A stretch of DNA of 64,000 bases from Erysipelotrichales bacterium (GCA_022508535.1 JAFLUZ010000002.1:63379-127378), one strand, 5' to 3'. Shown: positions 15,110-41,085, numbered from the stretch's first letter. Numbers and translations: made by a program. The notes: generated by a model not told the origin, from the letters alone.

Positions 15110-16380
15110 ATAATATAAAGAGATGTTACAATCTCAAATATCGGAGCGTAATACTTATTTAAAGTCCAAATACTTATACCTGCTAAATCATATTCTTGGA
15201 TTAACAGTGATTTAGCATATATACTTCTTGCGTCTGAAAAATAGACAATATGATCAACACCATTTTCTTTATATTTAAAATATGGTGCTTGTTGATATTC
15301 ATCGTATTGAATTACTGTATGCATTTTCTTGGCAAGTGCAGGCATATCGCGATTCGCTACTGATTTTGCTTTTGATTTTCCTTTGACATATGGAAGTGTA
15401 AAGTCATAACCATAATTTGGATAACCTAGCATTATCTTATTTTTCGGAATCACAGTTATGGCATATTCTATGACACGCTTTACCTCTTTTATTGGGGAAA
15501 CCGCCATTGGAGGGCCATAAGTATATCCCCATTCATAGGTCATAAGTATGACATAATCTGCGATATTTCCGATTCTTCGATAGTCGTGTGCCTCATATAA
15601 TAAGCCCTTTTGACTTGAAGAATATTTAGGAGCAACTGCAACAAACAATAAGAAATTTCCTGCATTTTTTATTGCTTTTTTTAGCTTTTCTAAAAATTGC
15701 ACATAAAGATCAACGTCAATTGGTAAAATATATTCAAAATCAACAACTAATCCCGTGTATATTTCTTGTTTTAATTTATTAGCAATATCTTGAAAAAGTT
15801 TTTCTTGTTTTTCATTACTTTTCAACAACATGTCTGCATATTCAGAAGAAAATGATCCTTTTTCATTTTGATTTGTAATGACCATAAGTGGGCTTGATTC
15901 ATATTTTTCTGTCAAACGCACTAATCGATTATCTGGTATATCTGTTAAATTTCCATTCTCATCATAACGGTAAGTAAAAATTGATAAGAAAGATAAATCT
16001 GTTAAAGCATTAGCAACTTCTTCTGAGCTACTTGTATAATACGCAAAACCATTTAACAATATATTTTTGCGATTTTCTTCATTTGGTTCGACAGTCAACT
16101 TTTGACCCACTACCAAACGATATGGAGGAGTCAAGGATGGATTTATATCTAATAACTCTTGTAAAGGGATGTTATATTTACGTGCAATTGATGATAAAGT
16201 ATCACCTTTTTGCACTATATAAACAGAATTCAGGTTTTGTAAGATTATTAATGCTTCACCAACTACTAAAGTATTAGGATCCGCAATATCGTTTATTTCT
16301 ATAAGAGTATTGACATCCATGCCAAACTTTCTTGCAATAGAACTGAGAGTGTCACCAGGTTTCACCACATAAATAAACAT
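15088..16380 (-). CDS. LysM-domain glycoside hydrolase family 18 protein (YaaH/SleL-like peptidoglycan hydrolase)
   Basis: Two N-terminal LysM repeats (YVVKPGDTLSSIARKFG..., YIVQKGDTLSSIARKYN...) and a GH18 catalytic motif GLVVDFEYI (DxE). Confidence 0.7.
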   Translation of the reverse strand: MFIYVVKPGDTLSSIARKFGMDVNTLIEINDIADPNTLVVGEALIILQNLNSVYIVQKGDTLSSIARKYNIPLQELLDINPSLTPPYRLVVGQKLTVEPNEENRKNILLNGFAYYTSSSEEVANALTDLSFLSIFTYRYDENGNLTDIPDNRLVRLTEKYESSPLMVITNQNEKGSFSSEYADMLLKSNEKQEKLFQDIANKLKQEIYTGLVVDFEYILPIDVDLYVQFLEKLKKAIKNAGNFLLFVAVAPKYSSSQKGLLYEAHDYRRIGNIADYVILMTYEWGYTYGPPMAVSPIKEVKRVIEYAITVIPKNKIMLGYPNYGYDFTLPYVKGKSKAKSVANRDMPALAKKMHTVIQYDEYQQAPYFKYKENGVDHIVYFSDARSIYAKSLLIQEYDLAGISIWTLNKYYAPIFEIVTSLYIINKIADD

Positions 16381-23263: not shown

Positions 23264-23386
23264 AAGTCGACCTTCTTTCTACTATCGTTTTAAGTATAAC
23301 AATAATTTACGAAAATAAAAATATTTATATTTTTTTATGCGAAATTTATCATTTGCTTAACTATAAGTAATAATGGAGGGGTTAAA

Positions 23387-23755
23387 ATGCAAAAGAAGAT
23401 AATGACAGAGATTCCTTTTAATGAAATGCATCGCCTAATAAGTGATATATTTGTACAAATAAAAGGAATGAGAATAAGACACTATCAGAACCCAGAAGAA
23501 GTAAATGTGGTATTCAGGGAAGGAGAAGAAAGCTATAATTATTTAAAAGAGCATAAAACAGAACAAAATAAATTGTTATTTAATGTTCATCAAGCATTAT
23601 TTTCCTTAGATGAAGAAGATAGAAAACTTATTATTGGAGAATTTTATGAAACAAAACCTTTATGGTGGATGAATTATTATTCGCGCAGCACATATTATAG
23701 AAAGCAAAGAAAAGCAATGAGATTATTTCTATACTTTTATGGGTGTTCAGTATGA
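23387..23755 (+). CDS. small sigma-70-region-4-like regulator (ArpU/RinA-like), first gene of the Tad-like operon
   Basis: The C-terminal half ALFSLDEEDRKLIIGEFYE...YSRSTYYRKQRKAMRLF fits the region-4 pattern AL..L...R.VI.L.Y...S..TV..R..RA. The match is weak. Confidence 0.3.
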   Translation: MQKKIMTEIPFNEMHRLISDIFVQIKGMRIRHYQNPEEVNVVFREGEESYNYLKEHKTEQNKLLFNVHQALFSLDEEDRKLIIGEFYETKPLWWMNYYSRSTYYRKQRKAMRLFLYFYGCSV

Positions 23756-24714
23756 TTAAAAAATTCTTGCTTGTTTTTTTAGCACTATCGTATATATCAC
23801 CAAACAGTAAATCTAATAGATTTAAAGATATTTATATTACTCCTATAAGTGATGATATTGTTATTAATTTTTCATATGTAGTCGGAACAACAAGCGATGT
23901 GAGATTTTCAATTTTTATTGAATATCCTGATTCTTTGCCAATTTATTTATATACAAATACAGTTTCCATAGTTTTCAACTATTCTGATAGTTTCCCATTA
24001 TTTAAAAGGCATTTAAAAGATGACGCTTCTTTGATTTTTAAAGCTAATAGTATAAATGGGTCTTCTTATCTTAGATTTGATTTGAAAAGCCAAAATGAGA
24101 CTTATGATTTATTAGAACAGCGATATTTTTATCTAGAAGATGCTGTGCAATATCTCAGTGATAGAGAAATAATAAATTACGCAAACGAAACTATAGAATT
24201 CAATGAACTCAATCATAATCTTGATTTATCATTGCCTTACTTATTTTATGATCATATCTATTTTTCCCAGGACTCATATTTTTTCCAAGATGAGCTGCAA
24301 TTCGATGAAATCACAATGGAAATAATGGATAAAAACAATATTTTTCCTCTTTTAACTCATAAAGAAGATACAGTAATTATTAATCTTGAATTAGAAAAGA
24401 AAAATAATATGTACTATCTATCTTTATTAGACAAACTTTATGTATATAATGACACTTTAATCTTATCTAACAGCCCAAAAGATGGTTTTGTACGAACAAA
24501 TTATTTGTATATACCAAAAAATTGTTTAGAAGAACAATTCGATATAACAATTAAATTTAAAAGCTTAGGATTACAAAAAATTAATTGTTATTATAACTAT
24601 ATTTTGTGGCGCAATAAAAAATTTGTCGGTTCTTGCTCTTCGTCATTAAATTGCGTGCGTATAAGTGAGTCTAACGATTATTTTGATACAAACATGTCGG
24701 AGGTGTTCGTATGA
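23743..24714 (+). CDS. hypothetical secreted or membrane-anchored protein of the Tad-like operon
   Basis: N-terminal hydrophobic signal MIKKFLLVFLALSYIS; 323 aa; 4-bp overlap with the next gene. Confidence 0.4.
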   Translation: MFSMIKKFLLVFLALSYISPNSKSNRFKDIYITPISDDIVINFSYVVGTTSDVRFSIFIEYPDSLPIYLYTNTVSIVFNYSDSFPLFKRHLKDDASLIFKANSINGSSYLRFDLKSQNETYDLLEQRYFYLEDAVQYLSDREIINYANETIEFNELNHNLDLSLPYLFYDHIYFSQDSYFFQDELQFDEITMEIMDKNNIFPLLTHKEDTVIINLELEKKNNMYYLSLLDKLYVYNDTLILSNSPKDGFVRTNYLYIPKNCLEEQFDITIKFKSLGLQKINCYYNYILWRNKKFVGSCSSSLNCVRISESNDYFDTNMSEVFV

Positions 24715-25076
24715 TTGTTTTTTTAACAACGGCATTTTTATTTTTATTCTCTCTTGCAAACTTTACAAATACAATAACTTATAATTCAATTGATCAAAGG
24801 TTTTATTCATCGTTAAAAAGTTCGGCAGAAAATTCAATCGTGTATTCTGGTGATATTATCTATTTTGATAAGTATCTTTTAAATGTGACGTTAAATGATT
24901 TATTAACTCGTGAACTAAAAGTAATATCTCCAAAAAAATACTACGTATATATTAATTATTATTATGGAGATGGCACAGCTTGTAGTTATCGATGCAAAAG
25001 TGTCAATATCCGCTTAAAAGTAGGCATTTCGTCAACTGCAACGTATGATAAGGCATACTCACTTACAATAGGATAA
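24711..25076 (+). CDS. hypothetical N-terminal-TM protein (pseudopilin-like?)
   Basis: N-terminal TM helix MIVFLTTAFLFLFSLANF followed by a ~95-aa soluble domain. Confidence 0.35.
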   Translation: MIVFLTTAFLFLFSLANFTNTITYNSIDQRFYSSLKSSAENSIVYSGDIIYFDKYLLNVTLNDLLTRELKVISPKKYYVYINYYYGDGTACSYRCKSVNIRLKVGISSTATYDKAYSLTIG

Positions 25077-25080
25077 AGTT

Positions 25081-26052
25081 ATGAACGATAAATTATATGA
25101 TTTTTTCTTAAATTCTTTTTTGAATCCTTTATTAAGCGATAATGACATTACTGACATTTACTACAATGGGCGAGATATTTTTTATCAATCCAATAGCTTC
25201 GGGCGCCAAAAATCTGATTTAAAAGTTGATCCTAACTATATAAATAATTTTATTCGCCAAATTGCCAATATGTCCGAAAAATTATTTTCAATTTCCAATC
25301 CAATTTTAGATGTTTCAATAAGGAATTTTCGTATTAACGCTGTTCATGGCTCAATTGCAAAACAAAAGTATGAAAAGGTTATCACCTTTGCTATTAGGAA
25401 AGCCAGTAACACTTATAATGTTGATTCGATTTTAAATAATCTACCACAAGAATTAATTGATTATTTTAAGAATGTTCTTTCGGACAAAAAATCTATTATC
25501 ATCTGTGGTAACACTGGAAGTGGCAAAACAGAATGGCAAAAATATCTTATTTCATTGATAGAGGATAACACTAGACTAATTGTTATTGATAATATTGAAG
25601 AGTTATCAATTATGCAAAATGAAAAATTAGATATTACTTTTTGGCAAGTGGATGAAAATAATAGTCATATTGATTTGAATGGTCTAATCTCAAATTCATT
25701 AAGATTTAATCCTGATTGGACAATTATTGCTGAATCAAGAGGAAAAGAGATGAACGCCATTTTAACATCAGTATTAACTGGTCATCCAATAATCTTAACT
25801 ATGCATGCCAAAAGCTTAAAACTCATTCCATCAAGGATTATGCAAATGATCTTGCAAAATGAATCGGCAATACGAGACACTAGGATTCTTGAAAAAAATA
25901 TATATAGTGCTTTCAACGTTGGTGTGCATATTGAAATTAAAAAAATAAATGGTAAAGTAATCCGCTATATTGATGAAATAAGAGAATTTTTACCAAGCAA
26001 AAGAACGAAAATTATTTACAAATATAAAGGAAGTGATCTTGATTTGTTATGA
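25081..26052 (+). CDS. secretion/pilus-assembly ATPase of the CpaF/TadA-VirB11-GspE superfamily
   Basis: Walker A ICGNTGSGKTE, Asp/Walker B box LIVIDNIEE, and His-box-region motifs RFNPDWTIIAESRGKE and GHPIILTMHAKS (compare RPDRIIVGEVRG and GH.GS.TIHA). Confidence 0.75.
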   Translation: MNDKLYDFFLNSFLNPLLSDNDITDIYYNGRDIFYQSNSFGRQKSDLKVDPNYINNFIRQIANMSEKLFSISNPILDVSIRNFRINAVHGSIAKQKYEKVITFAIRKASNTYNVDSILNNLPQELIDYFKNVLSDKKSIIICGNTGSGKTEWQKYLISLIEDNTRLIVIDNIEELSIMQNEKLDITFWQVDENNSHIDLNGLISNSLRFNPDWTIIAESRGKEMNAILTSVLTGHPIILTMHAKSLKLIPSRIMQMILQNESAIRDTRILEKNIYSAFNVGVHIEIKKINGKVIRYIDEIREFLPSKRTKIIYKYKGSDLDLL

Positions 26053-26735
26053 TTATATGTCTCGGTTGCAGTATTTTAATGTTTTCATTATTATTTTTAA
26101 CAACAGGAGTTTTAGAATATAGCCTAATCGGTGGAATTGTTACATTTTTGTATAGCTTTTTATACGCAAGTGGAGCAATAAAAAAATACACAAATGCACA
26201 ACGATCAACTATCGAATGTGCCAACTTTATCAATACTGTAATTATTTCTTTAAGCATTTCAAACTCATTAGAAATGGCTTATAAAGACGCTACAACAAAA
26301 ATGTCTAAGCAACTAGACAAATTTATTAAGAATCAATGTAAATCTTTAGATGTTTCAGAAAATTTGGAAACTTTACGAAATTATTTTAAATCATCAACTT
26401 ATGCAGTTTTTTTAAACATTTTAAAAATGCATGCATATAATGGTGGCAATATACTGGAAATGTCCGTAAATTTACAATTAGAATTACGTAGGAAACAAGA
26501 AATAATTAATTCCATAAAACAAATTAACAATAGGAAAACATATGAATTTTTCTCTCTTTGGGCTTTTTGTTTAGCAATTTTGCTTTTTTGCCGATTAGGT
26601 CTTAATAACATTTACCAAATGATGCAATCATATTTCCTTTTTAATTACGAAATATTGTTTTTCTTTGCATTTATGCTTTTCTCATCCCATCTATTCATTT
26701 CCAATGTTACAAATTCAATTAAGAAGGTGATATAA
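26049..26735 (+). CDS. TadB-like inner-membrane platform protein (single T2SS-F-type domain)
   Basis: Topology of TM helices, a ~120-aa cytoplasmic helical domain and further TM helices, positioned directly after the ATPase. Confidence 0.45.
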   Translation: MIICLGCSILMFSLLFLTTGVLEYSLIGGIVTFLYSFLYASGAIKKYTNAQRSTIECANFINTVIISLSISNSLEMAYKDATTKMSKQLDKFIKNQCKSLDVSENLETLRNYFKSSTYAVFLNILKMHAYNGGNILEMSVNLQLELRRKQEIINSIKQINNRKTYEFFSLWAFCLAILLFCRLGLNNIYQMMQSYFLFNYEILFFFAFMLFSSHLFISNVTNSIKKVI

Positions 26736-27403
26736 TGTTCAACTTAAAAAGCAAAATAACATCATTGGGACTAGATTATAAAAAAGAAATAACAAAAATT
26801 TGCGCACTAAGTATCATTATTCTTTTTGGTTCTTTATATTTATCTTATTATCTCAAATCATATTATATTGGACTTGTCGGTTTTGTAATTATCTTTGTTG
26901 TAATAGAGTTATTTGGTCTATTATATGATAAAAAATTGTCATCGCTAAAACGTGAAAACGAGACTGAATTTGTTGTTGTATTAAATTATATTCAAACATA
27001 TTTGCACAATGGCTTTAATGTATATAAAGCCATCGAAGAAACCATTCAATTCACAACACCCTGGATGCAAAACAAATTAGGAATATTAATTGCGGATATT
27101 GATAATGACAAAACTATCGCGCCATTTATAACCTTTTCTCATTCTTTTGATTCTAAAATCATTGAACAAGTAATGATTTCTCTGTTTCTAATGGTAGAAA
27201 ATGGATCAAATGATGAATTTATTCTCCGTTTCACTCCAATCTTCAATCAACTAGAAAAGGATAGCAAACACAAATTAGTAAAGCAAATAGAAAGCAAATT
27301 TGATAGTTTAAATCTATTACCTGTCATAGGTTCAGCAATTATAACATTACTAATAATCACTGGCGTAGTTGGTTTAATAGGAGGTGTACTTAATGGCTTC
27401 TAA
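26735..27403 (+). CDS. TadC-like inner-membrane platform protein
   Basis: Same topology as the preceding gene; the ATPase-B-C order matches Tad loci. Confidence 0.45.
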   Translation: MFNLKSKITSLGLDYKKEITKICALSIIILFGSLYLSYYLKSYYIGLVGFVIIFVVIELFGLLYDKKLSSLKRENETEFVVVLNYIQTYLHNGFNVYKAIEETIQFTTPWMQNKLGILIADIDNDKTIAPFITFSHSFDSKIIEQVMISLFLMVENGSNDEFILRFTPIFNQLEKDSKHKLVKQIESKFDSLNLLPVIGSAIITLLIITGVVGLIGGVLNGF

Positions 27404-27734
27404 CCTTGCGCATATTTTGGCCTTATTTTTGATTATTCCGTTTATTCTATTTTCCACTGATTTAATTGGCATACAAGAAACATATACAGAACTAGAAAAT
27501 GTAGCTACACAAGTGTCATTTAAAATACAAAAAATTGGCTATATTAGCGATGACTTAATTAATGAGATATACCAAACCTTCCACGCATATTTAGAAAGTG
27601 AGACAAATTCGAAACAAAGTTTTGGCGATTTAATTGAATTTAACATCTATAAATATTATGTAGGCAATTTTATCAATGATGGCAAAACACTAATTCGAAT
27701 TAAAAGAACTGTGTTGATTGGCTATATTGATTAG
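27384..27734 (+). CDS. N-terminal-TM small protein (TadE/pseudopilin-like?)
   Basis: N-terminal TM helix HILALFLIIPFILF followed by a soluble domain. Confidence 0.3.
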   Translation: MYLMASNLAHILALFLIIPFILFSTDLIGIQETYTELENVATQVSFKIQKIGYISDDLINEIYQTFHAYLESETNSKQSFGDLIEFNIYKYYVGNFINDGKTLIRIKRTVLIGYID

Positions 27735-27746
27735 AAAGGAGAAAAC

Positions 27747-27899
27747 ATGGGAGAACTTAAAGGACAAATTTTAGGCATTTTATTAGTGTTAATGGTCTTT
27801 GGTGGATTAATTACTGCTTATACTACAGTATTTAATAATGCTCAAACAACTATTACAACGCGCGCCAACAATTACATCAATTCCGAAACAATGCCGTAA
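27747..27899 (+). CDS. 50-aa hydrophobic pilin-like protein (Flp-like candidate)
   Basis: Not in the ORF track. RBS aaaggag; protein MGELKGQILGILLVLMVFGGLITAYTTVFNNAQTTITTRANNYINSETMP has a short charged leader and one TM helix. Confidence 0.3.
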   Translation: MGELKGQILGILLVLMVFGGLITAYTTVFNNAQTTITTRANNYINSETMP

Positions 27900-27904
27900 A
27901 AATT

Positions 27905-27935
27905 AAAAGGGGATTTTATCCCCTTTTATTTTATT
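27905..27935 (+). terminator. rho-independent terminator ending the Tad-like operon
   Basis: Stem aaggggat/atcccctt with loop ttt and a T-run. Confidence 0.6.
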
Positions 27936-27992
27936 GTTTACATCAATGCCTTTTATGATATAATTATGAAAAAGAAAAAGAGGTATAAATTA

Positions 27993-28214
27993 ATGAACAA
28001 ATTAGATGAAATAAAAGCAATGTTTGCAAAAAAAGTTAAAGTTGAAGAGTTAGATCCAGCAGCAGAATTAAAATCACTTGGTCTTGATTCATTGGATTTA
28101 GTTGAACTTATTATGGATATTGAAGAGAATTATGGCGTTGAATTTGATAACGAAGAACTAGTTGAATTTAAAACAGTTGGTGACGTTTTAAGCGCTATTG
28201 AGAAAAAACTTTAA
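27993..28214 (+). CDS. acpP: acyl carrier protein
   Basis: LGLDSLDLVELIM phosphopantetheine-attachment motif. RBS aagagg precedes the ATG at 27993; the track's start at 27966 is probably an upstream extension. Confidence 0.85.
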   Translation: MNKLDEIKAMFAKKVKVEELDPAAELKSLGLDSLDLVELIMDIEENYGVEFDNEELVEFKTVGDVLSAIEKKL

Positions 28215-28385: not shown

Positions 28386-28462
28386 GGCCTATTGGAGAAG
28401 CGGCTTAACTCACATGCCTTTCACGCATGCATTCATGGGTTCGAATCCCGTATAGGTCACCA
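28386..28462 (+). tRNA. tRNA-Glu, anticodon TTC
   Basis: Acceptor GGCCTAT/ATAGGTC, anticodon stem CATGC/GCATG, loop CTTTCAC, T-loop TTCGAAT, encoded CCA. The 3' end is part of the attL repeat. Confidence 0.8.
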
Positions 28463-28465
28463 TTT
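28447..28465. repeat. attL: 19-bp direct repeat cccgtataggtcaccattt (3' end of tRNA-Glu)
   Basis: An identical 19-mer recurs at 43294-43312. Confidence 0.7.
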
Positions 28466-28475
28466 TACAAAATCG

Positions 28476-28497
28476 CCGATTTTATCGGCTTTTTTTG
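28476..28497 (+). terminator. terminator after the tRNA pair
   Basis: Stem gccgat/atcggc with loop ttt and a 7-T run. Confidence 0.55.
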
Positions 28498-28501
28498 TGC
28501 C

Positions 28502-28542
28502 GTGATACTCTTGTGATACTGCTATGATACTGGCGTGATACT
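28502..28542. promoter_or_regulatory. four direct (G/A)TGATACT repeats at 11-bp spacing (putative integrase arm-type sites)
   Basis: gtgatact at 28502, 28513 and 28535; atgatact at 28524. They lie between attL and the 3' end of the integrase gene. Related copies gtgatact/ttgatact occur at 43157 and 43169 near attR. Confidence 0.5.
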
Positions 28543-28548
28543 TATATA

Positions 28549-29607
28549 CTATTGAAAGTATTGCGCCATTTTTGTTTTTCTAGATGGCAATAAATGAGCA
28601 TATACTCTTATAGTTGTAGATGTATCAGCATGGCCTAACCAGGAAGCCACCAGCTCAATCTCTGCACCTTTATTAAATAAATAAGTTGCGCATGAGTGTC
28701 TAAATTCATGCAACTTAATTACTTTCAAATTTGCGCGTTTGCAGTACTCTACTTGGGCACGTTTTATTGTTGTTTCTCCTATAACACATCCTTTCTTTTT
28801 GGTACTTGGGAATAGGAAATCATCATTTTTATGCTTAATTGATTCAGCATATTCTTCATACGCATATCGTATAGGAATGAGTAGTGGATAATCTCTCAAA
28901 CTAGCTGAAGATTTAACAGAAGTAATTACTTGCTTATGTGAGCCAGTTTTATTACTTACTGCGCGTTTTATATAAACTTTATCCATAACTATATCAGAGT
29001 GTTTTAATCCTCTTAGTTCTCCCATGCGCAATCCGTAATCAAATAGAAGTAGAAAGATTAATTTGTACATGGGTGAATCAATTACAGATAATAATTTTTC
29101 AAACTCTTCATAAGTGTAATAATCAAATTTCTTTGGTTCTACATATTGCTTTTTAAATACATACAAATTAGATTCAGTCACTGCAGGATCTAATCCGTAT
29201 TTTCTTAAAAACATTACATATACTTTTGCAAGAAATATGATATTAGTAATCGATTTAAGTTTAATTTTATTAACATTATTATTAAAAGTTTCTAGCACAT
29301 GATTAGTAACTTTTGATACTTTTAATTTACCGAAATATGGCAATAAATGTTGGTTGTAAAGATTGCTATATCGATACGCTGAAGCCTCTTTATATCTACT
29401 ATATAAATAATCAATGAATCTCTTTGTTAGATCTTCGCATATATATTCAGATTTCTTTTTATATGAATTGATTAGTGTAGGAATATAAGATGAAGCACTA
29501 CGTTTACTATCAAAGCCACGTTTAATATACTGCTTGTTATCGATAGTGATTTTTACATAGTATTTTTGCTCACCTTTTTTTGTTTTGTATCCATAAACGT
29601 TTTGCAT
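28549..29607 (-). CDS. tyrosine-type site-specific integrase
   Basis: C-terminal catalytic region HEFRHSCATYLFNKGAEIELVASWLGHADTSTTIRVYAHL (R..H..R..Y box). Confidence 0.85.
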   Translation of the reverse strand: MQNVYGYKTKKGEQKYYVKITIDNKQYIKRGFDSKRSASSYIPTLINSYKKKSEYICEDLTKRFIDYLYSRYKEASAYRYSNLYNQHLLPYFGKLKVSKVTNHVLETFNNNVNKIKLKSITNIIFLAKVYVMFLRKYGLDPAVTESNLYVFKKQYVEPKKFDYYTYEEFEKLLSVIDSPMYKLIFLLLFDYGLRMGELRGLKHSDIVMDKVYIKRAVSNKTGSHKQVITSVKSSASLRDYPLLIPIRYAYEEYAESIKHKNDDFLFPSTKKKGCVIGETTIKRAQVEYCKRANLKVIKLHEFRHSCATYLFNKGAEIELVASWLGHADTSTTIRVYAHLLPSRKTKMAQYFQ

Positions 29608-29781
29608 ATTAAGTTACTCCAAGATCTACCTGAACATAGTAATTTGATCCTGGATAACTTTTTATAATTTTGCGCGCTCCATAAGGAAACTCGCTTATGT
29701 TTTTTGGAATATGTGAAATAAAGAATTGCCTTTTATGGCATCTACAATTTTCATCAATATAGTTAATAATTAATAGCATTA

Positions 29782-30405
29782 TTATTCCACCTCCACATAT
29801 TGATAACTTTGAGGAGGCCGTTTAATACAATATTCCTGATGTAAATCTTTAAATAATTTATCAAAAACATTTTCATGATTTGCATAACATTCCATACCGA
29901 TATAATCCTCTTGAGATGATTCTAAATCTGTAAGCTCTTCTGAAAATCCTATTTTATGAAAATCACTTAATTCCATTGGAAAATTAAATGTTTGCAAATT
30001 GTCTATATACCAAGCGTAACCAGTTTTTCCTTTTCCGATATAATTAGATACTTCATCGTATGATAAACAACTTTTTTCCAAGTCGTTATAATTCCAATTT
30101 TGAATAGATCCATTATCAAATACACATATTTGCTCAACTTTATTTAAAGTAAATTTAGCAACTACATTTCCGTTGCCCATATATCCACCAATCGGAATTG
30201 CTGTTTCTCGATTAATAGCATACATGTATTTGGCTCCATAAGAATTTACAACTAGAGCATCGTGTATGCTGCTTTTCGTGCAATAAACATACACATCAAT
30301 TGGAAAATCGCATTTAGGTATTGTTTTTCTAATTTCAATTGTCTTTTCACCATTCAAGATTTTTTCAACCCACTTAGGTTGTATTGATATCAATATAGCT
30401 TTCAT
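29782..30405 (-). CDS. ASCH-domain protein
   Basis: N-terminus MKAILISIQPKWVEKILNGEKTIEIRKT matches the ASCH/PUA-like beta-barrel opening. Confidence 0.5.
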   Translation of the reverse strand: MKAILISIQPKWVEKILNGEKTIEIRKTIPKCDFPIDVYVYCTKSSIHDALVVNSYGAKYMYAINRETAIPIGGYMGNGNVVAKFTLNKVEQICVFDNGSIQNWNYNDLEKSCLSYDEVSNYIGKGKTGYAWYIDNLQTFNFPMELSDFHKIGFSEELTDLESSQEDYIGMECYANHENVFDKLFKDLHQEYCIKRPPQSYQYVEVE

Positions 30406-30647
30406 ATATTTACCTCCTTAACTTGATTAAAAATAGATATTGTATATAATTAAGATGGAAGTGGGGATCCTCATACCTCTCCAGCTTCTGGCAAGCTTGT
30501 TCTAGCTTGTCTTTTTTTTGTTTATAAATTCATCAATGATTATTGATATATATCCTTTACCAGGACAATTAGTCATATCAATAAGTCCAGTATCAAAAAC
30601 TATAGGTTTCTTATTTAGAAATTCTGGTAATTGTTTTTTATTTTTTT

Positions 30648-31154
30648 TCATAAATGATAATCCACCCATTGTTTTGTTTTAAGATTATAATTCCATATAC
30701 CAAAGCAATAATTCCCATGAATATTGTATTGACTTATAACTATAGAATCAGAAATAACATCGTATTCATGTGTTACTCCATCTATAAATTTTTCAACATC
30801 GTCTTTATTCCATAATTTAGCCTGACTATAAAGTTCGTAGTTATCTTCATCTTCATAAGGATTTCCTAACACTTTAAATTCAACTTGATAATATAATTTA
30901 TCCATAACTATCAAATCTGCTTCTATTAAATCTTTAGCATAAGGTTTTGGATTGATATATATACCAGGTGTAAGTAAATATGATGGCGATGATTTATTAC
31001 CATAAATTACTTCAACGAAATTTGTATGCTTATCTACAACTAAAAAATATGTTTTACTGCGAAATTCTTTTATTTTTTTGTAGTATGCCCAACAGTCTTC
31101 TTCAAATCCAAACTGCTTGAGAATTTTTAAATCAACATTATTTTTAATTTTCAT
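30648..31154 (-). CDS. hypothetical protein (paralog of the gene at 32130-32420)
   Basis: Shared N-terminus KIKNNVDLKILKQFGF versus KIKDNVDLCILENYGF and shared C-terminal KDLI.A.L motif. Confidence 0.4.
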   Translation of the reverse strand: MKIKNNVDLKILKQFGFEEDCWAYYKKIKEFRSKTYFLVVDKHTNFVEVIYGNKSSPSYLLTPGIYINPKPYAKDLIEADLIVMDKLYYQVEFKVLGNPYEDEDNYELYSQAKLWNKDDVEKFIDGVTHEYDVISDSIVISQYNIHGNYCFGIWNYNLKTKQWVDYHL

Positions 31155-31164
31155 ATTTGTTCTC

Positions 31165-31725
31165 CTATATCCAATAAAGTTTTTCTGTAAGTTCTGGAAT
31201 GTTGTAACAGATCCAGCAACATGCAGTATTGAAAGATGATTTTTTATTTAAGAATTTAATTCTCTTTTTAAAAATTATTATTGATAAACCATCTTTATAT
31301 TTTTCATATAAATCTGCGCGTTTAGGTGTTTCTAAAGTAGAAAGAGGAAGAAGCAAGGCAAACGATTTAATCTTTTTGGACTCTATTAAATCAAAGCTTC
31401 TTTTGATGATTTCGTACTGTAGACTAAATGGTGGATTGCTTATCATTAAGTCGCATCCAGGTGGTGGATTTGTTTTAAAGAAATCATTGCCTAAATCATC
31501 AAATTTATGTGTGGCTTTATATTGCAGTTTAAGCTCATCAGCTTTTAACTTAAATTCACTGTCGTAATGATTAAATGGAAACCAACACATTTTAAAAGAT
31601 TGAATATTAATTAAATTATATATTTGTTCCACTACCCAGCGTGGAGTTGCTACATGATCAGAATTATTAATACAATCATGTGTGTAAACACTTATGTTAT
31701 TTATTACAAGCTGCATATTTACCAC
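31165..31725 (-). CDS. putative phage-type DNA N6-adenine methyltransferase
   Basis: NPPF catalytic motif (CDLMISNPPFSLQYE); 186 aa. Confidence 0.45.
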   Translation of the reverse strand: MVNMQLVINNISVYTHDCINNSDHVATPRWVVEQIYNLINIQSFKMCWFPFNHYDSEFKLKADELKLQYKATHKFDDLGNDFFKTNPPPGCDLMISNPPFSLQYEIIKRSFDLIESKKIKSFALLLPLSTLETPKRADLYEKYKDGLSIIIFKKRIKFLNKKSSFNTACCWICYNIPELTEKLYWI

Positions 31726-31964
31726 CTTAGATTTTTAAACCGAATAAGAAAACTATTTTTCCAACATGGTTTTATTTCTGTTATCTCAAATAGATTTGTT
31801 GGTGATATAGGTACAGCAATACCTTTCCCAATAACAAAATGAATTAAATCATTTTCGCTTGGTGCAGAGTTATTTTGATTAGGTAAAATTATCATCTCTT
31901 TTAAATTGCCTTGTTGAATATCTTTCCAATCCTTAGTACGGATACTTATATTATGTAATTCCAT
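31719..31964 (-). CDS. hypothetical protein
   Basis: 81-aa ORF in the operon; no motif recognised. Confidence 0.35.
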   Translation of the reverse strand: MELHNISIRTKDWKDIQQGNLKEMIILPNQNNSAPSENDLIHFVIGKGIAVPISPTNLFEITEIKPCWKNSFLIRFKNLRW

Positions 31965-31970
31965 GCATTA

Positions 31971-32129
31971 TCACCTTCTTATAAAAAGCAATAGATCCTT
32001 TTGCTTTGGAAATAAATGATTTGAAGGTAATTGATTATCAGCAAAAGTAACTGGATTATTATGAGGTTTGCCTCTGAGTGCCAGTGATCTATACATCTTT
32101 CTAAAATGATTCCAATTTGTATTTTCCAT
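31971..32129 (-). CDS. conserved small ORF (52 aa) shared with element B
   Basis: MENTNWNHFRKMYRSLALRGKP...KQKDLLLF versus MKKTNWNNFRKNYRLLAHKGGTP...KKQRDLF at 56585-56749. It is not in the ORF track. Confidence 0.4.
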   Translation of the reverse strand: MENTNWNHFRKMYRSLALRGKPHNNPVTFADNQLPSNHLFPKQKDLLLFIRR

Positions 32130-32420
32130 TTATATCACCTCAACTAATCCAGCATCAATTAAATCTTTAAAATGTTTTTTATTGACATTGACTGGTTTGC
32201 CATCTCGCTTAGTTGGAAATAAATAACCATAAGGCCATATGTTTTTATTATCATATAGACTAACGATTAAATCACTTGTGCGTATGACTAAGTAATATAT
32301 ATTCCATGAACGCGCATTATAATCAGGCAAATTCTTTTTCCAATATTGATAGTGTCCATCATAAGTAAATCCATAGTTTTCTAAAATGCATAAATCTACA
32401 TTGTCTTTTATTTTATACAT
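32130..32420 (-). CDS. hypothetical protein (short paralog of the gene at 30648-31154)
   Basis: See the paralog entry. Confidence 0.4.
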   Translation of the reverse strand: MYKIKDNVDLCILENYGFTYDGHYQYWKKNLPDYNARSWNIYYLVIRTSDLIVSLYDNKNIWPYGYLFPTKRDGKPVNVNKKHFKDLIDAGLVEVI

Positions 32421-32431
32421 GTGCGTTCCCC

Positions 32432-33232
32432 CTAAAAATCTGTAACTTCTTGCTTGCGCAAACGCCTAGATTTACCAGTGATTTTTAATACTACAGAAGA
32501 TAGTTCATTAATTCGATCAATCGTTTTTTGCTCGTAGCCGTTACAGAACAACTCTCTAATACTTTGATTGGATGTAAATATTACTGGTTTACGTATTGAG
32601 TATCGAAGATTAATCATGTCGTATATTTTTGATTTAGCAAATTGTGAATCGGCTTGTTCTGAGCCTATGTCATCAATAAAAAGGAAATCGACTAATTTTA
32701 AAGATTTCATAATATCTTCTTCAGTCTCTTTTGAGCCATTAAAAGTAGAAGTGATACGCTTAATTAATGAAGATATGTTTGTGAATAAAACTTTATAACC
32801 AGATTTCATTAATTGATTTGCCATGCACGCGATTAAATGTGTCTTCCCAACACCTACATCTCCGTATATATAAATACCTAGATTTTTTTGTAAAATCACT
32901 GCAGCATTAGTACAGTATCTTTTGCACCTTGCATAAGCGTTATTAAATTCTGGATTATCTCCAATCTCACATGTGTCGAATGAACAATTTGTATAACGCG
33001 AATCCATAAGTGAAGCATCTTTTAAATTACTTATTATCTCACGTTCATAATCAGCAATAGCAGCATCTACAGCTTGCTGATTTCTTTTAGCTTTAATTTC
33101 ATCCCATATTGTTGATGGAATTTGCTCCCAGATAGTATCAGGAATTAAATCCATTTCCTCATCAGACATAGACATTATTTTTTCAGCTGTAAGTTCTGAT
33201 GCATCATTAATTGTTATCATGTGTTTCACCAC
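32432..33232 (-). CDS. DnaC/IstB-like AAA+ helicase-loader ATPase
   Basis: Walker A IYGDVGVGKTHLIACMANQL and Walker B LFIDDIGSE. Confidence 0.75.
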   Translation of the reverse strand: MVKHMITINDASELTAEKIMSMSDEEMDLIPDTIWEQIPSTIWDEIKAKRNQQAVDAAIADYEREIISNLKDASLMDSRYTNCSFDTCEIGDNPEFNNAYARCKRYCTNAAVILQKNLGIYIYGDVGVGKTHLIACMANQLMKSGYKVLFTNISSLIKRITSTFNGSKETEEDIMKSLKLVDFLFIDDIGSEQADSQFAKSKIYDMINLRYSIRKPVIFTSNQSIRELFCNGYEQKTIDRINELSSVVLKITGKSRRLRKQEVTDF

Positions 33233-33359
33233 CTTTTATAAAATCCTTAATTACCTTATAATTTGGTGATTTTGGTGTAAGTGATAAATAGATATTGCCA
33301 CTATCATGATGCATGTATAATTCATCAAGAAGTGCTTTTAATAATTTCTTTTTGTTCAT
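33225..33359 (-). CDS. 44-aa small ORF translationally coupled to its neighbours (ATGA overlap upstream, 8-nt overlap downstream)
   Basis: MNKKKLLKALLDELYMHHDSGNIYLSLTPKSPNYKVIKDFYKRW; not in the ORF track. Confidence 0.25.
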
Positions 33360-33550
33360 TGTTTTTTCTCCTGGATAAATGATAATTTTTGTATTTTAGA
33401 TTTATTGATTACATGTGTAATATTTCCTACTTTTACATGTAATTGTTTAGGTGATTCTTTAATTAAATCGCCGATAATAGAAATAACTTTTGTGCGCCGT
33501 ATGAGGCAATTGGGTTCTAACATCCAGTACACAACATTTACTTTGCGCAT
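33356..33550 (-). CDS. hypothetical protein
   Basis: 64-aa ORF directly downstream of the large membrane protein. Confidence 0.3.
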   Translation of the reverse strand: MRKVNVVYWMLEPNCLIRRTKVISIIGDLIKESPKQLHVKVGNITHVINKSKIQKLSFIQEKKQ

Positions 33551-35763
33551 TACTCTTCATCTCCATATTTAATATTGAAAAATTGTTTAGCAGCAAAAGA
33601 ATGCATACCTTTCCATTCGCTCGGAGATGGTGTTAAAGTTTTAAAAGTTGGCAAGTCGTCGAAATCTAATTTTGATCCATTCATACGCTCCAAATATCCT
33701 TTATGCAAATTTGCAGTGTTGTATCGGCCATATGCGATTTTATGGAATAAATAAATAATATCTTTTGAATACTCCTCTGATTTAACATCCTCAAGAGAAC
33801 CATTAGAACGATAAACATGATATTCATCAAATGAGTATAAATTTATTCTTTTTAAATAGTAGAAGTATAGGATGCTCACAATATTAGACACTAAATAGTT
33901 TGGTAAACTTTTATTAATCTTGATTTCTTCACGCTTCAGCGTATATTCATCAAAATGTTGTAGGATCCATTTAAGAACAAATTGCTCAAACCACCAATGT
34001 TGAAGACCAAATTTCTTTTTTATATTCCCAGTGTCTAAGGTAATAACAGTTTCAAAAGTGCCACGTGTTTCTTTGTTTACACCAGTATTCTTCTGATCGT
34101 TTCCAAGAAATTTAAAAGCTGGTTTTTTTCTTAGTGAAGCACCATGTCGCCATGTTTTTAAATTATCAGTGGCCTTATCATTATTGCGATTAACTCCAGA
34201 TGCTAAATTTGATTCTTTTTTCAAAGTATCAGAGTTTCCACGTTCCTTACCAAATTCTGTGAACAAAAATAGTCCAAAATCATAGAAATAGTAATCTGGT
34301 TTTTCATAATTAGCAAATTTTAAACCTGGTCGCATAAAGTCATAATTAACTATTACACATGATTTTCTTTTTAGATATTCTTTTGGTGTTTCTTTTAAAA
34401 TGTTTGTTTTATCAATGTTTAAATAGTGAGGTTTAGGATTTGTGTTATCGTTGAACATTACAGTATAATTGGCAACAGCATATGGGTTTTTATGTATGTA
34501 TAAGAAATACGCTAAAATCCAATCTCTTAAAGCATCTGTAAATGATTCGAATGTAAGACCATCCCACATTTTGTATTTTGAACCTGGTTCTAGATATAAA
34601 AGACTATAATCTTTAGTTATCTTGAATTTTTTTTCAAGTTCTGCAACATAGATATAAATATCTAATTGGTTATGGAATACACGAGTTTTCTTGTAGAATT
34701 CGACTTCACTCATCCATTTTGACCAGTTCGCTTGTGGAAATCTTTTTTGAATATCTAACATAGTGTTAAGAAGTTGTTTAGGAAACATTATCTGTTTATA
34801 GATAACTCCTAAACAAGTTCCAAGTGCATCCTTACCAGCTCCTGATATGCCTAAGAAAAGAATTTGTTGCCCAGAAGTATCTAAAAATTCTATATCATGA
34901 TCTAATTTCTTTTCCATAGTTTTATCTGCTTTGTATAATCTCCATAAATCAAAAAGTAGATAATAACTTATAAATCTTAAAGGAAAAGGAATTGTAAGCC
35001 ATTTAGGAAGAAAATCAATAAGTATTGTTAATAGACCTTTCCAGATGATACTCCAATCCACAGTTCTATTAATGACAGTTCCTAAAAAATGAAAGTAATT
35101 TGAAATTAGATCCAATAGAATTACTGGAAGATTTAGATAAATAGCAAATATTATTATCAGCATGACTGTTAACCATTTTTTGAAGAATTTCTTGCGCCAT
35201 GTATTAACCTTATTGAACAATTTAATAGATGGATTCCTAATTCTCTTTTTATATCGTTTAAGCGCTCTTGTATCTTCAGCAACATCATTTTTCTTATATC
35301 TTCTGAATAGTGATAGCAAAAGACCAAATAGCACTAATACAAGTATTAAATTAAAATATATGAGTGCCTTATCCATTTTGAAAGATAACTCTATACCTAT
35401 GAATTTCCAAAATGTACCATTTATAAGAAACGCAACAAAAACTTTAGCTCGTTTTATTAGTATCTGGAAGTCAATTGGAATAAGGTTAAGAATGGAGCCT
35501 CCAGCGTTCTCAATTAAATGATCAAGTGGAACTTGCAATGTTCCAGGACTATCTTTATTAGCTGTTATATAATAAATTGCAGATTGAAAGAAGTATTTAA
35601 TAGTAATCCATAGTCTTTTGACATTATCGAATGAGAAAAGAAAAAATAAAACCAATAACAAAACTAAAAATATTAATTGCTTCCAGTTGTTTTTAATAAA
35701 CTGATTAATCGCAATCAAAAAGTTAAGAAATATTGATTTTATTTTATTGAAAAATATTCTCAT
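33550..35763 (-). CDS. large polytopic-membrane P-loop-like protein (core module of elements A and B)
   Basis: Five or more N-terminal TM helices, P-loop-like GISGAGKD and the shared motif FLFTEFGKERGN. It is homologous to the gene at 54393-56543 (VLITEGGKERGN). Confidence 0.5.
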   Translation of the reverse strand: MRIFFNKIKSIFLNFLIAINQFIKNNWKQLIFLVLLLVLFFLFSFDNVKRLWITIKYFFQSAIYYITANKDSPGTLQVPLDHLIENAGGSILNLIPIDFQILIKRAKVFVAFLINGTFWKFIGIELSFKMDKALIYFNLILVLVLFGLLLSLFRRYKKNDVAEDTRALKRYKKRIRNPSIKLFNKVNTWRKKFFKKWLTVMLIIIFAIYLNLPVILLDLISNYFHFLGTVINRTVDWSIIWKGLLTILIDFLPKWLTIPFPLRFISYYLLFDLWRLYKADKTMEKKLDHDIEFLDTSGQQILFLGISGAGKDALGTCLGVIYKQIMFPKQLLNTMLDIQKRFPQANWSKWMSEVEFYKKTRVFHNQLDIYIYVAELEKKFKITKDYSLLYLEPGSKYKMWDGLTFESFTDALRDWILAYFLYIHKNPYAVANYTVMFNDNTNPKPHYLNIDKTNILKETPKEYLKRKSCVIVNYDFMRPGLKFANYEKPDYYFYDFGLFLFTEFGKERGNSDTLKKESNLASGVNRNNDKATDNLKTWRHGASLRKKPAFKFLGNDQKNTGVNKETRGTFETVITLDTGNIKKKFGLQHWWFEQFVLKWILQHFDEYTLKREEIKINKSLPNYLVSNIVSILYFYYLKRINLYSFDEYHVYRSNGSLEDVKSEEYSKDIIYLFHKIAYGRYNTANLHKGYLERMNGSKLDFDDLPTFKTLTPSPSEWKGMHSFAAKQFFNIKYGDEE

Positions 35764-35782
35764 AATAATTCCTCCTGCAGAA

Positions 35783-36211
35783 TTAATACTCGTAAAAATA
35801 AATATTATTGGTTATATCTAGTAGTCCATCCTTAACGAAATAAAGTTGCGTATCTTCCAATTCAGGATTGAGAAAATCTACATTAATTAAATAGTTCTCT
35901 GAATCAATTTCATAAGTGTAATAATAGATTTCTCGATTAATGATATTTTCTTCATCATCAAACTCATATTGATAATAAGTTCCAAGAAAATCATGCTCGC
36001 TATCGAATTCATAAATCATTCGTATATCATCTGTAAAAAATGTTTTGCCTAAAACACTCATATCAGCATCAATAATTGACATAGAATACTGATAAGCATT
36101 TTTTAAAATAAATAAAATGATAAGTATAAATACTACTAATAGCAGTCTTAAAAAGAATTTAAGCTTTTCGCCTTTATCAAATTTGATATTAGAATCAGGA
36201 GTCATTATCAA
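35783..36211 (-). CDS. small TM protein
   Basis: N-terminal TM helix LLLVVFILIILFIL; acidic Tyr-rich ectodomain. Confidence 0.4.
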   Translation of the reverse strand: MIMTPDSNIKFDKGEKLKFFLRLLLVVFILIILFILKNAYQYSMSIIDADMSVLGKTFFTDDIRMIYEFDSEHDFLGTYYQYEFDDEENIINREIYYYTYEIDSENYLINVDFLNPELEDTQLYFVKDGLLDITNNIYFYEY

Positions 36212-38460
36212 GTCCTCTTATTGGGTTTCTTACCAAATTCATCTAGAATCCATTTTATTAAAAATACAACAGCTACAATGACAACAAGTATAGCAATCCA
36301 CTTAAAAGTATTAGTGAAAAAATATCCCAGTTTATCCCAGAATGTTTCTTTGTGAAATATATTGTCTGGAGGTTCCACTTCGTTACCTATTGGATCTTTT
36401 AAAGTTCCAGTTTCCTCATCGTAGTGCAAAGGTAATTCATTACCCTCATCATCCATAATGACTGTATCACCATTTTTATCAAACGCAGTCAACCCAGAAT
36501 GATTGCCCCATGTCATAGCCGAAGCATTTACAATATCACCAGCTTCATTTATATAAAAACATTCAATAAGACTGTCAAAATCAAGATTGACACCCCTATT
36601 ATAAATAACATAAGTATATGGTGCCAAACGACCGAATTCCCCTATAAATGTATAAGCATTTTGATCAGCCAATGAAACACCTTGAAAAGTAAATTCAACA
36701 CCAGTTGATTCATCTTTTTTTGTAACATGATTATTCTTTTCATCTACATAATCTATAATAGGATGTTGAAAAACATTTCCATCATAAGCAATACCAGCTT
36801 GGATTCCATCACCAGAAAGAATATCAAAACTGTGTCTTACTTTATTTTTCTCACTTGCTAATGTATAGTAAAATTTAATACCATGTAGCTTATCAATTTG
36901 ACAATTAATAACACTATCATAGACATTAAAGAATAAACGTGTATAGGGTGATAATATACTTTCTACTTCTCTAGCTTCAAATTTTGCAGTATGAATTGTT
37001 GTCTTATCGACATACTTAAATTTATAGTATTGCCCACAATCAATGACATAATCAAGTATGTTTTTTGGTTCATCTGCAGCAGCTGTAACTGCATAAGTAG
37101 AAGATGATTGATTTTTTAATCTTGATGGTAATTGAACAAGTGATTCAATCTTATCTTTGCCAAACTTTGCAGTTGGATCTAAAGTCCTTTTCCAATCATC
37201 AGGAGTTACCATTAAAGATTCTGAAACTTCATTAGTAAGTTTACCAAGAGTAATATGATATTTGATTTCAGTGATATAAAAATCAACTTCTTGCTTAGCG
37301 TTCTTTAATTGCTCAAAGAAATCGCAGCTTGCAGTATCATAAGTGAAAGCAACACCATTATATTTCAAGTTATATTGTTGCATTTTTTCATAAAGAGAAT
37401 TATCAAAATCTAGTACATTATGAAATAAATCTAAATTGCGTATTTTACATTCAATCTCAAGATCATCATTTATAACTATAGAATCAACAACATATCTGTT
37501 CGCAGATACGGATGATATTGTTGACATTACACCCGTATTAAAATCAATGTTATTAATTAAAATTGGACCAAAAACTGAATGATTATAGCAATCTTTTTCT
37601 AAATAAAGATTTTGGACTAAAAATTCATAAGTTCCGATTGTGATAAATCCATAATTATTTAGCATTGATCTTTCATGACCTGTATAGATGCGCCAATACT
37701 TAGCAGACACTGTTTCTATATGTCTACGGTATGGGATTTCAACATACACAAATCTATTTTTATTATAAGCATTAGAAGAATCAGTTGTTTTATCTAAATA
37801 TACATGTGCATCATCAGATGTAGTAAGCGTGAAATCATTACCAGTCTTTTCTAAACTTAAGATAGTTTGACCATCAATCTCAAGTAAAGGGAGTTCAAGA
37901 TCATACTGATATGGTAAAAATAATTTTTTATAAAATTCAAAAAAATCAGTGCCTAAATCAAGCTTAAATTCAATTGGTAATGCTTGGCCTTTATCATTTT
38001 CAATGCGTTCAAATTCATAATTAAAAGTGCCTTTTAAATCAAATAATGAGCAATATGTCCCACCAGCAATGAATAAAGCTGTATTAGATAATTGAGTTTT
38101 ATTTAAAGGATTATTCGAAGAATTTGACTTGTACAGAAGACTAAGCGCTTGAATTTTGTTCTCATACACGTAATCGGCATACGAATCCATCAAATCAGTG
38201 TTATATTCAAAGACTTCGTAATCATCATGATATTTTGTTGGATAAGTAGTGTTTATAAATTCAGTATCTTCATCATCAAAATATTCTTTGTTCTTTTGTT
38301 GAAGATATGAACTTGCTTTACCAGAAACAATTGTTTTTTCTTCTGCAACTGCAGTAGTAGTATTATTTTTAATTAATCCTGGTATTAAAGAAGATGCTAA
38401 TAGTAAAAGTGAATTTAATCCTAAAAGTAATTTATTCATGATACACCAACTCACTTTCAT
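36208..38460 (-). CDS. large type-I membrane protein (signal peptide + ~700-aa ectodomain + C-terminal TM anchor + basic tail); putative virion spike or adhesin
   Basis: Signal LLLGLNSLLLLASS..TAVAEE and C-terminus WIAILVVIVAVVFLIKWILDEFGKKPNKRT. The architecture matches the gene at 59790-62033. Confidence 0.45.
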   Translation of the reverse strand: MKVSWCIMNKLLLGLNSLLLLASSLIPGLIKNNTTTAVAEEKTIVSGKASSYLQQKNKEYFDDEDTEFINTTYPTKYHDDYEVFEYNTDLMDSYADYVYENKIQALSLLYKSNSSNNPLNKTQLSNTALFIAGGTYCSLFDLKGTFNYEFERIENDKGQALPIEFKLDLGTDFFEFYKKLFLPYQYDLELPLLEIDGQTILSLEKTGNDFTLTTSDDAHVYLDKTTDSSNAYNKNRFVYVEIPYRRHIETVSAKYWRIYTGHERSMLNNYGFITIGTYEFLVQNLYLEKDCYNHSVFGPILINNIDFNTGVMSTISSVSANRYVVDSIVINDDLEIECKIRNLDLFHNVLDFDNSLYEKMQQYNLKYNGVAFTYDTASCDFFEQLKNAKQEVDFYITEIKYHITLGKLTNEVSESLMVTPDDWKRTLDPTAKFGKDKIESLVQLPSRLKNQSSSTYAVTAAADEPKNILDYVIDCGQYYKFKYVDKTTIHTAKFEAREVESILSPYTRLFFNVYDSVINCQIDKLHGIKFYYTLASEKNKVRHSFDILSGDGIQAGIAYDGNVFQHPIIDYVDEKNNHVTKKDESTGVEFTFQGVSLADQNAYTFIGEFGRLAPYTYVIYNRGVNLDFDSLIECFYINEAGDIVNASAMTWGNHSGLTAFDKNGDTVIMDDEGNELPLHYDEETGTLKDPIGNEVEPPDNIFHKETFWDKLGYFFTNTFKWIAILVVIVAVVFLIKWILDEFGKKPNKRT

Positions 38461-39748: not shown

Positions 39749-39773
39749 AAATGCGCAATATGCTTTTAATAAA

Positions 39774-40004: not shown

Positions 40005-40030
40005 TGGTATTGCTCCTTTCTTAATTTTTT

Positions 40031-41080: not shown

Positions 41081-41085
41081 TGGAA

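Follow-up and report, generated by a model that had tools for sequence, protein, structure and literature searches.

The 64,000-nucleotide stretch of Erysipelotrichales DNA analysed here (hereafter, the window) belongs to a 334-kb contig of a metagenome-assembled genome (MAG) labelled Erysipelotrichales bacterium, an uncultured gut organism, and contains, at positions 23387-27899, eight co-directional and tightly coupled open reading frames (ORFs), which we call g1 to g8. In our opinion the odds are slightly in favour of this chromosomal, vertically inherited operon encoding a type-IV-filament-like membrane machine, minimal, highly diverged and of Tad/archaeal-pilus type. As judged from sequence and profile comparisons, its g3-g8 core is the chromosomal sister of a gene block, genes 36 to 41, of the conjugative plasmid pLS20 and its relatives, with which it shares homology. 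A first-pass annotation of the window had counted nine genes in the region and described them as a Tad-like pilus or secretion operon. The count is eight, and of the Tad-like description we keep the broad branch of the ATPase, a platform split in two genes, a weak resemblance to TadF and a pilin-sized last protein, but not the membership of the canonical Tad family, to which the operon does not belong.

All eight genes are encoded in the plus strand. The ATGA overlaps already noticed in the first-pass annotation join g1 to g2, g2 to g3 and g4 to g5, whereas g5 and g6 have a single base in common (TAATG), g6 and g7 overlap by 11 nucleotides (nt), and the remaining intergenic gaps are of 4 and 12 nt. 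Upstream, the region between gmk and g1 (23264-23386, plus strand) is the presumed operon promoter and operator, in which a promoter scan gave weak sigma-70-like matches only. Downstream, the clean terminator proposed as the boundary of the operon is indeed an intrinsic hairpin (27904-27928, plus strand), with an 11-bp stem that includes 4 G-C pairs followed by a T run, beyond which lies the acyl carrier protein gene acpP, with its own strong (11/12) sigma-70-like promoter.

The comparison covered 89 related loci, 80 of them from a metagenome scan with an ATPase alignment, and all eight families were retrieved across loci by iterated hidden Markov model (HMM) searches. The order g1-g2-g3-g4-g5-g6-g7-g8-acp was found in each of the 38 complete loci, and every partial locus is consistent with it. 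In six loci obtained by exact look-ups and a genome scan, the minus-strand gmk gene is followed by the eight genes and then by acpP, and gmk occurs upstream of the operon in 43 loci. The acpP gene (27966-28214) always comes after g8, both in the window and in 51 related loci, with a median gap of 86 nt. This synteny is kept even in relatives whose ATPase is just 44-47% identical, and the flanking families seen time and again in the related loci are gmk, CNNM/CorC, HflX, ABC-F, SDR and acp. Such a uniform order of eight genes plus acpP across the complete loci is therefore that of a vertically kept chromosomal operon of the core genome, and not that of a mobile element. Mean pairwise identities among 35 loci were 50% for the ATPase g4, 47% for acp, 43% for g8, 41% for g7, 38% for g6, 36% for g5, 30% for both g1 and g3, and 22.5% for g2, so that only the ATPase and acp surpass g8 and g7 in conservation, and g2 comes last. 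Moreover, g8 is 98% and 92% identical in relatives with ATPases 80% and 73% identical. A scan of genome contigs with a single protein returned two close relatives only. The homologues come from MAGs labelled as Erysipelotrichales, Erysipelotrichia, Bacilli or Bacillota, where the public annotation reads "hypothetical" for all the operon proteins but the ATPase.

The ATPase itself, g4 (25081-26052; 323 amino acids, aa), matches the Pfam T2SSE family at 1.6e-18, above the cut-off, and shows a Walker A (GNTGSGKT), an Asp box (RLIVIDNIEEL), a Walker B (PDWTIIAESRG) and a His box (TGHPIILTMHA); all four motifs, of which the Walker and His-box ones had been recognised at first pass, are invariant in 41 homologues. 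Its initial assignment to a CpaF/VirB11 family was correct as to T2SSE and to a broad branch, but not as to either of the two named families. The best NCBIfam models were VirB11 (125 bits), TadA (102), FlaI (97) and TrbB (85), all of them far under their cut-offs. The VirB11 model TIGR02788 has a cut-off of 250 bits, and PRK13900 and PRK13851 were also far under theirs, indicating that g4 is no VirB11 orthologue; for the TadA model TIGR03819 the score was 101.7 bits with a cut-off of 373, so by this model g4 is no TadA/CpaF orthologue either. The models for ComGA (53 bits, cut-off 300), PilT and GspE scored far lower. When a profile of 41 g4-family sequences was compared with the PDB, the archaeal GspE came first with 105 bits, followed by the VirB11 HP0525 (90), FlaI (88), the Brucella VirB11 (84) and CpaF (79.5), whereas BfpD, DotB, PilT and PilB reached only 40-54 bits. 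Both rankings therefore place g4, by sequence profile, within the FlaI/VirB11/TadA branch of secretion ATPases and outside any curated family, distant from PilB, PilT and ComGA.

Two polytopic membrane proteins follow the ATPase, g5 (26049-26735; 228 aa) and g6 (26735-27403; 222 aa), adjacent to each other and with one cytoplasmic helical domain each. The AlphaFold2 model of g6 (pLDDT 79) has a GspF/PilC-type six-helix cytoplasmic domain, and its top nine Foldseek matches in the PDB are cytoplasmic domains of EpsF, OutF or PilC (target TM 0.65-0.74); a few members of its family also show weak matches to UpsF and FlaJ. The model of g5 is confident (pLDDT 89.5), although a whole-model search did not recover GspF domains. 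g5 and g6 are paralogues, as seen in the hhalign comparison of deep profiles (94.5%, E 8e-8, 135 columns; 59.8% with shallower ones), and therefore the combination of an ATPase with two single-domain platform-like proteins is real. In this regard, the earlier description of two single-domain T2SS-F-like proteins holds for the modelled fold of g6 and for the paralogy, which support a split-platform layout, but not for a sequence signature. Two single-domain platform genes are a hallmark of Tad and archaeal Epd-like systems (PMC6668835; PMC10191384). An exhaustive HMMER search with the g6 profile gave 263 cluster representatives among 1.84 billion proteins, which we read as a small family without HMMER connection to larger ones.

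The last gene, g8 (27747-27899), encodes the 50-aa protein that the first-pass annotation had added as a pilin-sized peptide missing from the ORF track. It is a real gene, preceded by a strong AAGGAG Shine-Dalgarno sequence, conserved in 54 related loci and already annotated on the public contig. Its N-terminus reads M-[SG]-E-[ILV]-K-G-[QTS] in each of the 47 distinct sequences, and is continued by some 22 hydrophobic residues and a short tail of variable sequence; M1, E3, K5 and G6 are invariant in a six-sequence alignment, and K-G is followed by Q/T-L-L-G-I. This K-G leader in front of a hydrophobic helix resembles, at the sequence level, a class III leader (K at -2, G at -1), and a Q at +1 is reminiscent of archaeal EppA substrates. 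On these grounds, g8 would be a candidate for the major subunit. The preceding g7 (27393-27734; 113 aa, or 116 aa from an alternative start at 27384) is a bitopic protein that starts with M-S-Y-K-[IV]-[GSA] and then a hydrophobic helix. Eight members of its family match Pfam TadF, always through the N-terminal 60 residues and in identical register, but each of these matches is below threshold, so that the likeness to TadF is repeated though weak, and g7 may be regarded as a TadE/TadF-like minor-subunit candidate. At the other side of the ATPase, g3 (24711-25076; 121 aa) has an N-terminal transmembrane (TM) helix and two cysteines conserved in the alignment, and g2 (23752-24714; 320 aa, or 323 aa from an alternative GTG start at 23743), the operon's most variable gene, encodes an exported protein with a signal-peptide-like N-terminus and, in some homologues, Ser-rich linkers or a lipobox. 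No match for g2, g3, g5, g6, g7 or g8 was obtained when the window proteins were scanned against Pfam, NCBIfam and PHROG models.

The nearest annotated relatives of the operon were found on plasmids. A tblastn search of the plasmid database PLSDB with g4 (E <= 1e-25) returned 265 records, all from Firmicutes and 217 of them typed as conjugative, which correspond to Bacillus (176 records, including pLS20-like natto plasmids, pXO2 and pBT9727), Listeria (45, pLM5578 among the relatives), Enterococcus (28), and also Lactococcus, Clostridium and Paraclostridium. The plasmid ATPases are 28-36% identical to g4 over about 90% of its length. In six plasmids the gene annotated as "CpaF/VirB11 family" (402-471 aa) is preceded by a protein of 119-140 aa with an N-terminal TM helix and followed by proteins of 267-277, 240-265 and 118-120 aa and, in five of the six, of 47-48 aa. 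In the published gene table of the pLS20 family, gene 37 is entered as a "putative VirB11", and "Unknown" stands for genes 36 and 38-41 (PMC8557374). Genes g3-g8 (121, 323, 228, 222, 113 and 50 aa) are collinear with pLS20 genes 36-41 (126, 402, 268, 243, 120 and 47 aa) and show a matching TM pattern. Moreover, hhalign comparisons between the chromosomal and the six-plasmid families supported homology for four of the six genes, namely g4 with gene 37 (E 1.7e-57), g7 with gene 40 (94.3%, E 1e-7), g6 with gene 39 (88.5%, E 2.8e-6) and g5 with gene 38 (64%, E 6.6e-5). A tblastn search of the plasmids with g5 and g6 found nothing. In a midpoint-rooted neighbour-joining tree of the ATPases, built with the six plasmid sequences and no outgroup, chromosomal and plasmid copies fall in separate clades, with mean identities of 48% among chromosomal copies, 53% among plasmid ones and 29% between both.

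Despite this shared order, size and TM layout, the two versions differ in several respects. The chromosomal operon stands alone between gmk and acpP, outside any plasmid conjugation operon, and has neither VirD4, VirB4, VirB6 and relaxase genes nor a thioester adhesin. A regulator of its own, of the ArpU/MG284 type, and a variable exported protein also set it apart from the pLS20-type block; the plasmid ATPases carry an N-terminal extension of about 65 aa that g4 lacks, and the K-G leader of g8 is absent from the 47-aa plasmid proteins. Regarding the plasmid surroundings, four of the six plasmids encode thioester or isopeptide adhesins upstream of the block, and one carries VirD4-like and pLS20_p028 genes downstream of it. 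TrbC/VirB2-family genes are found a few genes downstream in three of the six, pXO2 (L094, 8005-8283), Enterococcus faecium pA10290_P3 (L095, 7935-8210) and a Clostridium perfringens plasmid (L096, 7903-8178), where the VirB2 label is that of the NCBI annotation; in the paper on the pLS20 family, these operons are said to encode no VirB2 homologue (PMC8557374). The gene 40 homologue of the E. faecium plasmid (L095, 7161-7523) is annotated as a "DUF4320 family protein", and the DUF4320 model at E <= 0.05 matched none of the 48 chromosomal g7 members scanned.

A split platform of the GspF type together with proteins of pilin topology in the same block allows both the chromosomal and the plasmid versions to be read as type-IV-filament-like machines. 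For the chromosomal operon we would propose that g1 switches on its transcription, that the g4 ATPase, presumably as a hexamer, docks on the platform formed by g5 and g6, and that this platform lifts g8 as the major subunit and g7 as a TadE/F-like minor one, perhaps together with g3, from the membrane to build a short filament or pseudopilus, with g2, exported and variable, as a likely partner at the surface or at the tip. Several observations weigh against such a machine, above all the absence of a linked peptidase, of Glu5 and of any observed filament. Pfam T2SSF is far under its cut-off for both g5 and g6, and sequence-profile searches of the PDB with their families (6, 51 and 93 sequences) returned no GspF or PilC chain. 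The 47 sequences of g8 have no Glu5 and, as the first-pass annotation had rightly pointed out for its single sequence, no G/XXXXEY Flp motif (no E5 or Y6), and the plasmid counterparts of g8 show no glycine before the helix, so leader cleavage may not occur. A prepilin peptidase of the A24 type, the search for which had been recommended as a check, was not revealed by a GxGD-K motif in the six-frame translation of the whole window, nor was any peptidase present among the recurrent flank families of the related loci or in an additional 10 kb at one side of the contig. At the ends of the plasmid block, the relationship of g3 with gene 36 is weak (hhalign E 0.004; hmmsearch of the gene upstream of the plasmid ATPase, E 4.5e-5), making g3 a positional and weak homologue, and the profile comparison of g8 with gene 41 gave no significant homology. 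Finally, pili are said to be absent from the conjugation systems of Gram-positive bacteria (PMC11730352), and no filament has ever been observed for this family.

The relationship with plasmids leads to a different explanation, which we regard as unlikely, namely that we are dealing with a domesticated or left-over piece of a Gram-positive conjugative type IV secretion system (T4SS), with g4 as a true VirB11 at a DNA-translocation channel, and with VirB4, VirD4, VirB6 and the relaxase supplied by another part of the genome or by a resident element. The first-pass annotation had already named a grouping with conjugative VirB11, or T4SS genes in the vicinity, as what would speak against its Tad-like proposal; the former has appeared in part, as the nearest annotated relatives are the "VirB11-like" ATPases of conjugative plasmids, but no T4SS genes lie near the chromosomal operon. 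Those relatives sit in conjugation operons beside VirD4-like, pLS20_p028 and TrbC/VirB2-family genes, VirB11 is the top NCBIfam model for g4, and gene 37 of pLS20 is treated as a VirB11 in the literature (PMC8557374). On the other hand, neither the Pfam annotation of the genes around six loci nor the clusters recurring at the sides of the related loci revealed any VirB4, VirD4, VirB6/VirB8 or relaxase, and in the related loci no transfer genes occur within ~7-10 kb. The operon keeps its position between gmk and acpP down to 44% ATPase identity, the chromosomal ATPases form a clade of their own, and a platform of the GspF type is present, although a classical VirB11 needs none. As for a resident element, the large proteins of the one integrated next to the operon have no Walker A, and this element is missing in a relative (L004) that retains the operon.

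Under the reading of a filament-like machine, the lack of a coupling protein, VirB4, VirB6 and relaxase, the fixed housekeeping position and the gain of g1 and g2 lead us to infer a role in surface contact. Cell-surface contact or adhesion would be the most likely function, rather than conjugation, with DNA uptake as the main alternative. This alternative, a competence-type pseudopilus like ComG or like the Flp-dependent transformation of Micrococcus luteus, would agree with the core-genome position, the minimal gene set and the unusual conservation of g8 in close relatives mentioned above, and Tad-type pili can reportedly drive transformation (PMC4322843). We find it rather improbable, because neither ComEA nor ComEC nor DprA is linked to the operon, either in the window or among the recurrent flank families, the most variable gene encodes an exported protein, which fits adhesion better, and the plasmid homologues serve DNA export. 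The ComG system of monoderms is also a minimal machine of ATPase, platform, and major and minor subunits (PMC10191384), but its ComGB platform is a single two-domain protein and its pilins have Glu5 and a globular head.

That the operon is nothing more than a fast-evolving canonical Tad (type IVc) pilus seems very unlikely, even if the order of an ATPase, two single-domain platform proteins, a TadE/F-like protein and a pilin of about 50 aa resembles that of Gram-positive tad loci. With Tad and archaeal Epd-like pili it shares the broad ATPase branch, the platform split in two single-domain genes, a very short major subunit candidate and a TadE/F-like protein. It differs from them by the absence of the Flp motif, of Glu5, of a second ATPase of the TadZ/FlaH type and of a peptidase gene in the locus, by a platform that Pfam T2SSF does not recognise, and by a g4 without the N-terminal domains of CpaF. 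Neither TadZ nor TadV is encoded in the operon, where g4 is the sole P-loop protein among the eight genes, and the conserved flanks are gmk, CNNM, HflX, ABC-F and acp. The large deficit of g4 in the TadA model, the small size of the g6 family and a profile ranking where CpaF stands under the archaeal GspE, VirB11 and FlaI argue against this identity as well. A different tad locus, of 13 genes and horizontally acquired, has been described in Erysipelotrichales in a paper on Bulleidia (PMC12786226). Imam et al. listed the Mollicutes as a group without type IV pilus genes. Finally, a SpoIIIA-like channel or any other non-filament complex of a secretion ATPase with a GspF-like protein is hardly credible: neither SpoIIIAA nor any other SpoIIIA model appeared among the NCBIfam matches, so that we rejected this identity, there are no proteins with ring-building motifs, and PilC and EpsF outscore SpoIIIAB in the fold comparison of g6.

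Going one step further, it is conceivable, though we would rather doubt it at present, that the operon and pLS20 genes 36-41 make up together an unrecognised Firmicutes branch of type IV filaments, whose subunits are devoid of Glu5 and may do without a prepilin peptidase. In that case, conjugation of the pLS20/pXO2 type would use a filament machine of Tad/archaeal likeness, contrary to the current view of systems without pili, and a copy free of DNA transfer would have become fixed in the core genome of some Erysipelotrichales, where it would serve a host function. Mating-pair formation in Gram-positive conjugation has been described as largely unexplained, and a GspF-type split platform with pilin-like subunits beside the so-called VirB11 offers a concrete and testable role for a conserved block of these operons, a block which the chromosomal copy indicates can work without DNA-transfer genes. 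With its six to eight genes, moreover, the operon would provide a naturally occurring minimal system in which to study a type-IV-filament-like machine without Glu5, TadZ or a linked peptidase, and it would be a candidate surface or contact organelle for the poorly known Erysipelotrichales of gut and rumen. In the searchable literature we found no paper that links pLS20 genes 36-41 to type IV filaments or gives platform or pilin roles to genes 38-41, nor any that describes the chromosomal operon.

The first gene of the operon, g1 (23387-23755; 122 aa), is the presumed transcription activator, to judge by the families that it matches. Its C-terminal domain fits NCBIfam NF045770 (MG284/MPN403 C-terminal domain) at 5.1e-17, with 61.6 bits for a cut-off of 37.3, as do all 45 members of the g1 family, 14 of which also match the ArpU model TIGR01637 below threshold; a further match, at 8e-5, is phrog_248, "transcriptional activator". 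Altogether, these matches agree with the ArpU-like character that had been attributed to g1 from the start. ArpU-family proteins are described as activators of phage late operons (PMC3753634). While g1 is akin in its C-terminal domain to the ArpU/RinA-type activators and to the mycoplasma MG284/MPN403 family, it heads a chromosomal operon for a membrane machine instead of a phage packaging or lysis module. Literature searches for MG284/MPN403 gave nothing relevant. In Mycoplasma genitalium and M. pneumoniae, too, the gene for the acyl carrier protein comes a few genes after MG284/MPN403, and this order would point to an ancient g1...acp linkage in the lineage of Mollicutes and Erysipelotrichales.

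Upstream of g1, at about 50-100 nt, a palindrome TTAAT(T)C-N3-4-G(A)ATTAA was found in 14 of 45 distinct upstream regions (L017, L020, L022, L038, L041, L042, L047, L053, L054, L065, L067, L068, L072 and L084), for a background rate of 3%, and it may be an operator. The palindrome is absent from the clade of the window itself, where A/T-rich palindromes are found instead. In many loci, a CCTAT...ATAGGAGG sequence is also present upstream of g1, which could pair with the g1 ribosome-binding site.

Directly downstream of acpP, the window contains an integrated element of ~14.85 kb (28447-43312), flanked by direct repeats of 19 bp (CCCGTATAGGTCACCATTT; 28447 and 43294), with attL in the 3' end of a tRNA-Glu gene (28386-28462). 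Among its genes are a tyrosine integrase (28549-29607, minus strand), a DnaC-like loader and a DNA methyltransferase. Its large proteins lack a Walker A and matched neither PHROGs nor, in the case of those of 737 and 750 aa, any PDB entry. We considered this element as a possible part of the system and rejected it, given its 19-bp repeats in tRNA-Glu and its absence from relative L004, which shows the empty site and retains the operon. A Logan contig of the same species breaks ~400 nt before the element junction, just after acpP. A second block, from ~52000 to 64000 and continuing for ~4 kb past the window end (L090, 5941-20321), has a low GC content (24-28%), all its genes in one strand, and a REP_ORF2-G2P replication protein at 53274-54197. 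None of its four proteins scanned matched PHROGs, and its large proteins show no Walker A. Two of its proteins have homologues in the first element: one of 716 aa with five TM helices, related to the 737-aa protein there (E 2e-27), and one of 324 aa, related to the 438-aa protein (E 2e-46). The block and the element may belong, by these sequence similarities, to one family of small integrating elements.

As for the remaining genes of the window, an LPXTG motif was found in none of its 64 ORFs and a lipobox in six of them, the predicted lipoproteins encoded at 3628-6081, 12461-14275, 43433-43771, 43930-44442, 46479-47204 and 47443-49392. One of them, of 817 aa, carries a Listeria-Bacteroides repeat, and another, of 649 aa, four CBM26 modules for starch binding. 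The window also encodes a LysM+GH18 protein at 15088-16380 (minus strand), ~7 kb upstream of the operon, and an rve-family transposase at 51208-52224 (minus strand).

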